The position numbers and the translations under genes are program-made. Shown piece after piece: positions 13,845 to 63,645 of a DNA stretch of 64,000 nt. Below the pieces are notes generated by a model. The model was not told the DNA's origin. It searched no databases and worked only from the letters and a program-made list of their open reading frames with translations. Each line of letters starts with the position of its first letter. The first letter of the stretch is position 1. The stretch lies in assembly GCF_013167455.1 (NCBI RefSeq), contig NZ_CP038328.1; one strand, given 5' to 3'. This DNA comes from Escherichia coli O157:H7. Lineage in GTDB: Bacteria > Pseudomonadota > Gammaproteobacteria > Enterobacterales > Enterobacteriaceae.

Positions 13845-14810
13845 ATGAGTAAACCCATTGTGATGGAACGCGGTGTTAAATACCGCGATGCCGATAAGAT
13901 GGCCCTTATCCCGGTTAAAAACGTGGCAACAGAGCGCGAAGCCCTGCTGCGCAAGCCGGAATGGATGAAAATCAAGCTTCCAGCGGACTCTACACGTATC
14001 CAGGGCATCAAAGCCGCAATGCGCAAAAATGGCCTGCATTCTGTCTGCGAGGAAGCCTCCTGCCCTAACCTGGCGGAATGCTTCAACCACGGCACAGCAA
14101 CGTTTATGATCCTGGGCGCTATTTGTACCCGCCGTTGTCCGTTCTGTGACGTTGCCCACGGTCGCCCGGTAGCTCCTGATGCCAATGAGCCAGTGAAACT
14201 GGCGCAGACCATTGCCGATATGGCGCTGCGTTATGTGGTTATCACCTCCGTTGACCGTGATGACCTGCGCGATGGCGGTGCCCAACACTTTGCGGATTGT
14301 ATTACTGCCATTCGGGAAAAAAGCCCGCAAATCAAAATTGAAACTCTGGTGCCGGATTTCCGCGGTCGTATGGATCGTGCTCTGGATATTCTGACTGCAA
14401 CGCCCCCAGATGTGTTCAACCATAACCTGGAAAACGTACCGCGTATTTACCGGCAGGTACGGCCTGGCGCAGATTACAACTGGTCGCTGAAGCTGCTGGA
14501 ACGCTTTAAAGAAGCGCATCCGGAAATCCCGACCAAGTCTGGTCTGATGGTGGGTCTGGGTGAAACCAATGAAGAAATTATTGAGGTAATGCGCGACCTG
14601 CGCCGTCATGGTGTGACGATGTTAACGCTGGGGCAATATTTGCAGCCAAGCCGCCATCACCTGCCGGTTCAACGTTACGTTAGCCCGGATGAGTTCGACG
14701 AAATGAAAGCCGAAGCGCTGGCGATGGGCTTTACCCATGCTGCATGCGGTCCGTTTGTCCGCTCTTCTTACCACGCCGATTTGCAGGCGAAAGGGATGGA
14801 AGTTAAGTAA
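13845..14810 (+). CDS. lipA: lipoyl synthase (radical SAM)
   Basis: 321 aa ORF; both Cys clusters visible ([12 protein letters not shown] and CTRRCPFC). Confidence 0.97.
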
Positions 14811-14840
14811 TCCTGTAATAATTACTTACATCTGTCTGAT

Positions 14841-14870
14841 AAAAAACCCGCTTTTTGAAGCGGGTTTTTT
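14841..14870. terminator. bidirectional rho-independent terminator between convergent lipA and tatE
   Basis: aaaaaacccgctttttgaagcgggtttttt: GC stem flanked by A-run and T-run, so it can terminate either strand. Confidence 0.7.
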
Positions 14871-14910
14871 GTATCGAACAAGATATTGAGGGAGCGTCCT
14901 GCTCGCCACG

Positions 14911-15114
14911 TCACTCTTTATGAGAGAGCTTTTCAGCCTGAAGATCAACGTCTGCGCCTTTTTTCGCCGCAGCATCGTCATCATTCATCGCCTTCTTGAA
15001 CCCTTTAATGGCCGCTCCAAGGTCTCCGCCCAGCGTACGTAACTTCTTAGTCCCAAACAGCAGAACGACCAGCGCCGCAACTACCAGCAGTTTGGTAATA
15101 CTAATCTCACCCAT
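14911..15114 (-). CDS. tatE: twin-arginine translocase subunit TatE
   Basis: 67 aa ORF; TatA/E-type N-terminal TM helix followed by amphipathic helix. Confidence 0.93.
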
Positions 15115-15242
15115 AGATACCTTCTTGACATATAACCGGCAACAGAACGCGCCTTAAAAACCAAAGAATATTAACGGTCATTCGACGCGCGCACACAATA
15201 GCAATCTGTAACAAGGTGAATCAAGCGCCGAGTAAAAAAACA

Positions 15243-16037
15243 TCATAATAATTGCGGCGGCGCAAAGCGACGGTTGTTTAAGACGGGCAGTTGCGCGCGC
15301 ACCTGACGCACACGTTCGGGCGTCACTTCCGCCATAATGAGTGCAGGCATTTCTGACGCTGCCGCAATGGTGACGCCAAAGGGATCTATAATCCGGCTTT
15401 GCCCGATATTTTTGTTCCCGCACTCCCCCGCCGCCACCATATAACAGGTGGTATCCAGCGCACGAGCGGCAAGCAACGTTGACCAGTGGTGCTCTTTGAG
15501 CGGCCCGCGAACCCAGGCGGCAGGAAGTACCAGGATTTCAGCTCCCTGTAATGCCTGTGCCAGCGCCAGCTCTGGAAAGCGTAAGTCATAACAGGTCATC
15601 AGACCGACCTTCATCCCCTCCACCTCGAGTAACGGAGCAATTTCATTACCAGCATCAACACGGCGTGATTCCTGAATGGCAAATGCATCATAGAGATGCA
15701 ATTTGGCATAACGGGCGACGATGTTTCCTGCCTGTAGCGCCACCAGCATATTCCATGCGCGCCCCGGCGTTGAAGGAACATGAATCGTCAGAATTGTCGT
15801 CATCATGTTACGTTTACTTTCTCGCCGTAAACGTCCGAGGAATTCGCCTTCCAGCAGCTGTGCTGATTTAACCGATAGATCTGCATCATGATCATCGCGC
15901 GCCAGCAATGCTTCCGGCAGGACAAACAGCGATACGTCGTTTTCCGCCGCCTGCGCCATCAACGAGGCACAAATCTCAGCGTTCTTTTCCCACACAGATG
16001 TAACAGCAAACTGTCCTGCAGCAACCAGCATTGCCAC
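15243..16037 (-). CDS. ybeM: C-N hydrolase (nitrilase-superfamily) protein; uninterrupted ORF here
   Basis: 264 aa continuous ORF with candidate catalytic residues in nitrilase-like context (LFVLPE Glu, AKLHLYD Lys, [11 protein letters not shown] Cys); I recall reference annotations treating ybeM as a pseudogene but cannot verify that. Confidence 0.75.
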
Positions 16038-16123
16038 CTCCTGTCAGAGTCGTAAAATTCGCCAACGACGATTATTCGGCGTTACACTTATCACTCATAC
16101 AAATCAAATAGCAGGATTTTGCA

Positions 16124-16507
16124 GTGTTACAACTTCTTTTAGCAGTTTTTATTGGCGGTGGTACGGGAAGCGTGGCGAGATGGCTGTTAAGTATGCGATT
16201 TAACCCGCTGCATCAGGCGATTCCGTTGGGGACGCTGGCAGCAAACCTGATTGGGGCATTCATCATAGGAATGGGATTCGCCTGGTTCAGCAGGATGACG
16301 AACATTGATCCAGTGTGGAAAGTATTAATCACCACCGGATTTTGTGGCGGTCTAACAACCTTCTCAACATTTTCGGCAGAAGTGGTGTTTTTGTTACAAG
16401 AGGGCCGCTTTGGCTGGGCATTACTGAACGTTTTCGTCAACCTTCTGGGGTCTTTTGCCATGACCGCACTGGCATTCTGGCTGTTTTCGGCCTCAACCGC
16501 ACACTAA
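16124..16507 (+). CDS. crcB: fluoride ion channel CrcB/FluC
   Basis: 127 aa hydrophobic ORF with GTG start; recognised as CrcB. Confidence 0.92.
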
Positions 16508-16512
16508 AGACC

Positions 16513-16541
16513 AAAAAAAACCCGCTGATTAAGCGGGTTTT
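16513..16541. terminator. bidirectional rho-independent terminator between convergent crcB and cspE
   Basis: aaaaaaaacccgctgattaagcgggtttt: GC stem with flanking A and T runs. Confidence 0.7.
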
Positions 16542-16560
16542 GAATTCTTGCTGACGTATC

Positions 16561-16770
16561 TTACAGAGCGATTACGTTTGCAGCAGAAGGGCCTTTGGCA
16601 CCGTTAGTGATTTCGAACTCTACGCGCTGACCTTCAGCAAGAGTTTTAAAACCATTAGTCTGGATTGCAGAGAAGTGTACGAACACGTCTTTGCTGCCGT
16701 CTTCCGGAGTAATGAAACCGAATCCTTTGGACTCATTAAACCACTTAACGTTACCTTTAATCTTAGACAT
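16561..16770 (-). CDS. cspE: cold-shock-domain protein CspE
   Basis: 69 aa from internal ATG of the track ORF ([20 protein letters not shown]...); RNP1 motif KGFGFI. Confidence 0.95.
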
Positions 16771-16944
16771 CAAAATTACCTTTACATGAAAAATAGACAC
16801 AAATGCTGTGTCGGTTACCAGTACACCAATTGTGGTACGCTTTGTCCAGTGCAACTTTACTAAAAAGTGATAAAAATCGCGTTATTTTTGATGTTGCTTA
16901 TTTTAGTTATTGATTTTAAAGAAGTTACTAAAACTTCATTTGTC

Positions 16945-17505
16945 TCAAAACTGAAAGCGCATCCAGGCAAAGTACACATTGCCATTGTTGTAGGTACCCG
17001 GAATGTAGGTCATCTGAAAAGTAACTGGGCCATAACCCACGGAGGCCAATGGCAGTAGAACCGGGAGAGGGATGTAATTCCAGTTATCGCGTGCCGTTAC
17101 GCCAGCGGTGAATCCCAGACCTAAATGAAAATTTTCATCCGCCAGCGGTCGCCAGGTACTTTCCCATCCGTATCCGGCAATCGGTTCCCATTTGTTCCAC
17201 GAGTCCTTAAATGCCATGGCATACAGGCCATGCCAGTTTCCTTTTTCATCCCAACGCGACAGGCCAAAACCGCCACCCCACGGTCGCTCGTTATAGCGAT
17301 CGGTTTTTTCTTTGTCGTAAGCGAAACGTGCATGCCAGGTGATGGCAGGAATATATAAATCATAATGTTCAGGCTGTTGCCAGGTTTGTACAATATTTTC
17401 TCTAAACGTTGTCATCCACTCATCTGCGTTAGCAAAAACTTTACCAACGCTGATTAACTGAATAAAAACAAAGGAAAAGATAGCGACATATTTACTCACG
17501 TTCAT
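16945..17505 (-). CDS. pagP: lipid A palmitoyltransferase PagP (outer membrane)
   Basis: 186 aa from internal ATG ([14 protein letters not shown]...); signal peptide; C-terminal aromatic residue typical of OM beta-barrels. Confidence 0.93.
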
Positions 17506-29866: not shown

Positions 29867-30012
29867 TCCTCTGATTTACAAAACACGCTAATTCGTCTTT
29901 CATAAACCATGACGATTAAGAATTATACATAATGCGCTGCATTGAGGAATTCCCTGAATGTGACGCAAATCACTTCAAAGAGTGAGCAACAGTCAGTATC
30001 ATCATGTGAGTT

Positions 30013-30047
30013 AAACCCTCGCCGCCTGACGGTGAGGGTTTTCTTTT
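30013..30047 (+). terminator. rho-independent terminator downstream of rna
   Basis: aaaccctcgccgcctgacggtgagggttttctttt: 9-bp stem with one G-U pair, then T-rich tail. Confidence 0.55.
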
Positions 30048-30095
30048 GGGTATGTTTATCTGCGACACTCGCAGTACCGACGACATGGAGTAAAA

Positions 30096-63545: not shown

Positions 63546-63645
63546 TGCCGGATGCGGCGTGAACGCCTTATCCGGCCTACAAAAATCTTGCCAATTCAAT
63601 ATATTGCAGGACCATGTAGGCCTGATAAGCGTAGCGCATCAGGCA
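63546..63645. repeat. pair of inverted REP elements (BIME-like) downstream of fepA
   Basis: tgccggatgcggcgtgaacgccttatccggcctac and inverted copy gtaggcctgataagcgtagcgcatcaggca about 35 nt apart. Confidence 0.85.

Follow-up and report, generated by a model that had tools for sequence, protein, structure and literature searches.

The window analyzed here is a 64,000-nucleotide stretch of Escherichia coli O157:H7 DNA, collinear along its whole length, from leuS to entD, with the chromosome of the O157:H7 strain PV15-279 (NZ_AP018488.1) at 99.97% identity. The gene of interest, ybeM, lies in the order ybeF, lipA, tatE, ybeM, crcB, cspE, and pagP, and the 1051 nt around it are 100% identical to PV15-279. 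In O157:H7, RefSeq labels the product “deaminated glutathione amidase” (WP_000959109.1) and attaches no pseudogene flag. Public annotation already contains this gene, together with its name, family, and K-12 pseudogene status.

The reading frame of ybeM is intact. On the minus strand, an uninterrupted open reading frame extends from a GTG at 16037 to a TGA at 15243–15245, which the ORF listing gives as 795 nt and 264 amino acids. The sequence upstream of ybeM is GACAGGAGGTGGCAATGCTGGTT, in which the GTG is composed of the final base of a consensus AGGAGG followed by TG. Two codons downstream is an ATG at 16031, and the RefSeq CDS of O157:H7 begins with this ATG and is 789 nt long. Because the ATG falls 5 nt past the Shine–Dalgarno sequence, is the RefSeq start, and gives the 262 residues found in the orthologues, ybeM occupies 15243–16031 and encodes 262 amino acids, not 264. 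Translation almost certainly begins at this ATG; the GTG start was rejected, as it overlaps the Shine–Dalgarno sequence while the ATG fits the spacing, the RefSeq call, and all orthologues. The original prediction of a continuous 264-codon frame is correct in its continuity and in its count from the GTG, but the gene itself is shorter by two codons and lies on the minus strand, which the prediction left unstated. Overlapping antisense ORFs, such as one of 106 amino acids at 15551–15871 on the plus strand, lie wholly within the well-supported and conserved ybeM and were set aside. Residues are numbered from the ATG throughout, and the features of the gene are collected in Table 1.

Table 1. Coordinates within the window of the ybeM gene, its translation signal, its predicted catalytic codons, and the site of the K-12 lesion.
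Feature	Position	Strand	Basis
ybeM CDS, ATG to TGA, 262 aa, predicted deaminated glutathione amidase of the Nit1 branch	15243..16031	minus	ORF list, RefSeq CDS, Pfam, NCBIfam, exact UniRef match
Shine–Dalgarno AGGAGG, 5 nt upstream of the ATG at 16031	16037..16042	minus	Read from sequence: GACAGGAGGTGGCAATG
Codon of predicted catalytic Glu40 (LPE)	15912..15914	minus	Aligns with LPE Glu of NitFhit 1EMS and yeast Nit2 4H5U; invariant in orthologues
G deleted in K-12, second base of Arg67 codon CGT, gene position 200	15832	minus	Alignment column 206; G present in window
Codon of predicted catalytic Lys110 (AKLHLYD)	15702..15704	minus	Aligned with 1EMS/4H5U; invariant in orthologues
Codon of Glu121 (IQES), second Glu of the Glu-Lys-Glu-Cys tetrad	15669..15671	minus	Aligns with “ES” of NitFhit and yeast Nit2; invariant
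Codon of predicted nucleophile Cys147	15591..15593	minus	Aligned with 1EMS/4H5U; invariant in orthologues

The encoded protein is a member of the nitrilase superfamily. The Pfam profile CN_hydrolase (PF00795) matches with E = 8.5e-41 and 140.4 bits against a cut-off of 23.2, covering profile positions 2–255 of 256, and a match of this strength over nearly the full profile places the ORF and its motifs far beyond chance. The superfamily named in the original prediction is thus borne out. It can be refined to a Nit1-type deaminated glutathione amidase by the RefSeq and Swiss-Prot names and by the NCBIfam model NF033621 (de_GSH_amidase), which scores 452 bits against a curated cut-off of 355 across profile positions 2–260 of 260. 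The model for the Nit2/YafV omega-amidase, NF007757, matches only in part, with 58.4 bits against a cut-off of 249, and YbeM is therefore not a member of the YafV family. The Yersinia-type deaminated glutathione amidase model, NF043013, likewise falls below its cut-off (82.5 bits versus 500).

The sequence motifs expected of the catalytic residues are complete. LFVLPE spans residues 35–40 and ends with Glu40, AKLHLYD spans 109–115 and contains Lys110, and the motif of Cys147 spans 144–154; all three contexts quoted in the original prediction are present in the ORF. Glu121 corresponds to the second glutamate of the Glu-Lys-Glu-Cys catalytic tetrad of the superfamily. When YbeM is aligned with the Nit domain of Caenorhabditis elegans NitFhit (1EMS) and with yeast Nit2 (4H5U), all four residues are found at homologous positions. 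These two proteins are also the closest solved structures by sequence (3e-29 and 1e-26, respectively), with mouse Nit2 behind them.

In a search of a 5.8-billion-protein collection, E. fergusonii, Citrobacter, Salmonella, Leclercia, Kosakonia, and Enterobacter were among the sources of orthologues bearing the name “deaminated glutathione amidase”, and among the matches listed nearly all enterobacterial orthologues have 262 residues and 100% query coverage. An alignment of 13 sequences has 262 columns and no gaps, the orthologues being 72–84% identical to YbeM of the window. Glu40, Lys110, Glu121, and Cys147 are invariant in this alignment, and the window protein departs from none of the invariant columns. 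Truncation at either end or an inactivating substitution would have spoken against intactness. Measured against the 12 intact orthologues, neither end is shortened, no gap is introduced, and the invariant catalytic residues are kept.

The AlphaFold model of YbeM, built on the same 13-sequence alignment, is of moderate confidence (mean pLDDT 76, pTM 0.82) and is weakest in the C-terminal tail and in residues 115–124 (pLDDT <50), the loop that carries Glu121. The predicted fold is the alpha-beta-beta-alpha sandwich. The best 50 matches in the PDB are all superfamily members (TM 0.66–0.81), headed by Nit2 of Kluyveromyces lactis and Saccharomyces cerevisiae (TM 0.76–0.81), with other superfamily amidases next.

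Deaminated glutathione (dGSH) is a side product of transaminases that, according to reports citing Peracchi et al. 2017, is hydrolyzed to 2-oxoglutarate and Cys-Gly by Nit1 and by the yeast NIT2 product (PMC9913352, PMC10452834, PMC5714238). For bacteria, the NIT1 label has been assigned to YbeM and the NIT2 label to YafV (PMC8788347). By analogy with the superfamily, the substrate of YbeM would be 2-oxoglutaryl-Cys-Gly, formed by mistaken transaminase action on glutathione. Cys147 would act as the nucleophile that attacks the omega-amide carbonyl to form a thioester, with Glu40 as the probable general base and with Lys110 and Glu121 thought to stabilize the tetrahedral intermediate. Cys-Gly would then leave, and hydrolysis of the thioester intermediate would release 2-oxoglutarate. 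The overall process would be a metabolite-repair reaction (EC 3.5.1.128) that clears damaged glutathione. E. coli proteins, recombinant YbeM among them, were reportedly assayed as well in the 2017 work of Peracchi and colleagues. In the strain of the window, both the expression of ybeM and the dGSH amidase activity and chemistry of its product are presumed.

The assignment of the substrate is the part of this description most open to an alternative. An intact and active YbeM could act instead on 2-oxoglutaramate or another omega-amide, as Nit2 and YafV do, or on some other amide, in which case its name has been over-extended. Specificity is not readable from sequence, identity to the characterized eukaryotic Nit1-type enzymes is only ~24–28%, and weak sub-threshold matches connect YbeM to other amidase models. 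On the other hand, the cut-off of the curated dGSH amidase model is passed (452 versus 355) and that of the YafV model is widely failed (58 versus 249), the best relatives by both sequence and fold belong to the Nit1 branch and not to mouse Nit2, and Swiss-Prot gives the exact sequence the name deaminated glutathione amidase. A different true substrate is, on this balance, very unlikely, and a Nit1-type dGSH amidase is the preferred identity for YbeM.

The YbeM protein of the window is widespread. By exact-sequence look-up, it is a UniRef representative and the Swiss-Prot entry YBEM_ECO57, “Deaminated glutathione amidase”. The exact sequence is carried on at least 1000 contigs, and its 90% cluster has 3131 members. 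Shigella shares it with O157:H7 and with E. coli B, whose derivative NEBExpress has the same protein accession, WP_000959109.1. At the nucleotide level, ybeM of the window differs from that of E. coli B by five synonymous and no nonsynonymous changes, and from that of the uropathogenic (UPEC) strain 536 by 12 synonymous and two nonsynonymous changes. The mostly synonymous character of these differences within E. coli is consistent with purifying selection.

A simple consensus scan of 14800–16600 detected neither a minus-strand sigma-70-like site upstream of ybeM nor a convincing terminator beyond the gene, with site counts at the level expected from shuffled sequence. The divergent ybeM–crcB spacer of 92 nt (given as 16038–16123) has a sole promoter-like match, which points toward crcB. 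An Rfam search of the whole window found no fluoride riboswitch before crcB and no RNA family in or adjoining ybeM. Elsewhere in the window, the same search matched the cspA thermoregulator at 16513–16955 on the minus strand (123 bits against a gathering score of 78), spanning cspE and a long leader and adjoining crcB. It also matched the rnk leader at 29942–30050 on the plus strand (125 bits), upstream of rnk, and the ES036 (CssrF) sRNA at 63582–63623 on the plus strand, near the fepA/entD end of the window, where 40.5 bits is just over the gathering score of 37.6.

Expression of the gene has been described in another strain. In the UPEC strain CFT073, the ybeM orthologue is transcribed and responsive to NO by ChIP-seq and transcriptome analysis, and an NsrR ChIP-seq peak, “345 (ybeM)”, is reported 345 nt into the gene in both CFT073 and K-12 (PMC5320621). 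In the window, an NsrR-like half-site, ATGATGCATTT, is found at 15681–15691 on the minus strand, gene positions +341 to +351, and has one mismatch from the NsrR half-site AANATGCATTT. The half-site pattern has four matches in the window against about eight expected by chance, and the count alone is uninformative. As ATGATGCATTT encodes the invariant residues Y114-D115-A116-F117, NsrR binding there may be incidental to coding constraint.

These observations bear on whether ybeM could look intact and yet be dead in this strain too, a cryptic pseudogene that is either silent or inactivated by a missense change. In favor of such an outcome, ybeM is dispensable, E. coli has lost it by at least three different routes, and the consensus scan shows no promoter. 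Against it, no residue invariant among the 13 orthologues is altered, the same sequence is maintained in O157:H7, E. coli B, Shigella, and at least 1000 contigs, substitutions between lineages are overwhelmingly synonymous, the Shine–Dalgarno sequence is strong and ideally spaced, and CFT073 transcribes and regulates its orthologue. A cryptic pseudogene is thus exceedingly improbable, and the window is best regarded as holding a functional ybeM.

The condition of ybeM in K-12 is due to a single-base deletion. In NC_000913.3, ybeM (b4581) is marked “pseudogene” at 658031–658818, 788 nt, as the original prediction stated, and PGAP flags the locus of a second K-12 genome as “frameshifted”. Alignment of the window with these two K-12 sequences, numbered from the GTG so that the lesion falls in column 206, contains one gap, a G at gene position 200 that converts CGT of codon 67 to C-TT. 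The K-12 frame consequently encodes 66 native residues and nine aberrant ones (LYGEKVNVT) before a TGA, a product of 75 residues in which Glu40 is the only catalytic residue kept; Lys110, Glu121, and Cys147 are out of frame. The window does not carry this K-12-type allele, as its G at 15832 is present. The original prediction had offered two explanations for the K-12 flag. The first, that this strain carries an intact allele, agrees with the unbroken frame, the retained G, the full length, and the kept catalytic residues. The second, a pseudogene call with no visible frame break, fails because the K-12 lesion is an ordinary frame break. The alignment that was proposed to decide the matter gives a consistent answer: MG1655 has the 1-bp deletion, E. 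coli B has the same protein as the window, and the 12 orthologues from other Enterobacteriaceae align free of gaps. Since the deleted G lies in the context GGAC[G]TTTAC with no homopolymer run, phase variation at codon 67 is unlikely.

The deletion is not confined to K-12. The K-12 allele, taken as the exact 70 nt across the deletion, is found in 860 (about 16%) of 5424 complete E. coli genomes, and the exact 71-nt allele of the window is found in 3552; most of the remaining genomes, among the rows sampled, have normal-length alleles that differ by SNPs. Many natural isolates carry the deletion, and they come from human stool in Mozambique, river water in Japan, frog-farm sediment and human urine in China, and from chicken, dog, cucumber, and bovine mastitis sources, so that several continents are represented; of 60 listed carriers, at least 22 are not laboratory strains. 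Given these counts and the many natural isolates, the deletion is a lineage polymorphism and not a laboratory artefact. That the K-12 “pseudogene” reflects a sequencing or annotation artefact, with ybeM intact in all E. coli, is refuted by the alignment, the position of the deletion, and the population counts: the identical deletion occurs in MG1655, the second K-12 genome, and independent natural isolates, all flagged “frameshifted” by PGAP, and the exact allele is in 860 independent complete assemblies, with nothing found in favor of an artefact.

In four wild carriers that were read (300709, KMi025, ES10, and EC29), the deletion is at the same position and the alleles are identical or nearly so. 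The linked crcB allele, WP_000939747.1, is common to K-12 and the wild carriers. The shared position, the near-identical alleles, and the common crcB allele point to a single origin of the K-12-type deletion. Relative to these wild frameshift carriers, K-12 ybeM has no extra synonymous changes and two nonsynonymous ones, V33A and V37A. Both are upstream of the frameshift, and V37 is invariant in the 13 orthologues and lies three residues before Glu40. The numbers are tiny, though the pattern fits decay after inactivation. Clusters of 205–215-residue proteins (343–945 members), some named “hydrolase, partial”, are 98–100% identical to the C-terminal ~80% of YbeM. They are probably ORFs called downstream of the frameshift in K-12-type alleles and, if so, would be devoid of Glu40.

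Other lesions of ybeM are independent of the K-12 deletion. In O166:H15 strain JNE21-003, an IS21-family ISEc62 insertion splits the gene. In ERL03-1416, a different 1-bp deletion, GAAAAGA[A]C, falls at about gene position 50; apart from this lesion, which could be an assembly error, the allele equals that of the window. A “nitrilase-related hydrolase, frameshifted” in strain UTME-9 was discarded, as all genes in that region are flagged frameshifted, which suggests an assembly of low quality. Repeated loss indicates that ybeM is dispensable, at least in some lineages. None of the allele counts and lesions collected here demonstrates selection for that loss. The published NsrR peak inside the coding region, together with recurrent loss, leaves room for a conditional role in nitrosative or thiol stress. 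A broader account would join these elements: dGSH repair would be lost recurrently, the K-12-type deletion would be old, widespread, and identical by descent, and, alongside the stress-conditional role, loss would be neutral or even favored in one major commensal lineage. This account is speculative and, as a whole, unlikely.

With great confidence, the window carries an intact, functional allele of ybeM that encodes a 262-residue cytoplasmic amidase of the Nit1 branch, and the status of the gene in K-12 arises from a lineage-specific 1-bp deletion. K-12 is then the exception, and most E. coli, including O157:H7, B, and UPEC, retain an intact gene for a Nit1-type metabolite-repair amidase. Metabolic models and knockout collections based on K-12 are without an activity that wild strains have. 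In MG1655, ybeM serves as a “neutral pseudogene” integration site (PMC4788846). In most other strains this site holds a live gene, which is a practical warning. Because K-12 also has V33A and V37A, repair of the frameshift alone would not restore wild-type YbeM. Beyond such bookkeeping, an intact ybeM is of little consequence.

Comparison with known systems places YbeM at increasing distances. YBEM_ECO57 (WP_000959109.1) is the same gene, with all 262 residues identical, the same crcB–tatE locus, and no difference. K-12 b4581 shares the locus and the neighbors pagP-cspE-crcB-ybeM-tatE-lipA and has 11 substitutions in 789 nt, but it is without the G at position 200 and bears the two valine-to-alanine changes at residues 33 and 37. 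The Nit1-branch enzymes are mammalian Nit1, S. cerevisiae Nit2 (4H5U/4HG3/4HGD), K. lactis Nit2 (7ELF), and the Nit domain of C. elegans NitFhit (1EMS). With these, YbeM shares the superfamily fold, as predicted, and the aligned Glu-Lys-Glu-Cys residues, and they are its best solved matches by sequence and fold; the named reaction, dGSH to 2-oxoglutarate and Cys-Gly, is also the same (PMC10452834). YbeM differs from them in its low identity (~24–28%), its length of 262 residues compared to about 290–340, and its lack of a Fhit fusion and of a mitochondrial targeting sequence. The Nit2 and E. coli YafV omega-amidases (2-oxoglutaramate amidases) resemble YbeM in superfamily, in catalytic chemistry, and in serving metabolite repair downstream of transaminase side reactions, but they act on another substrate, and their NF007757 cut-off is one that YbeM fails.
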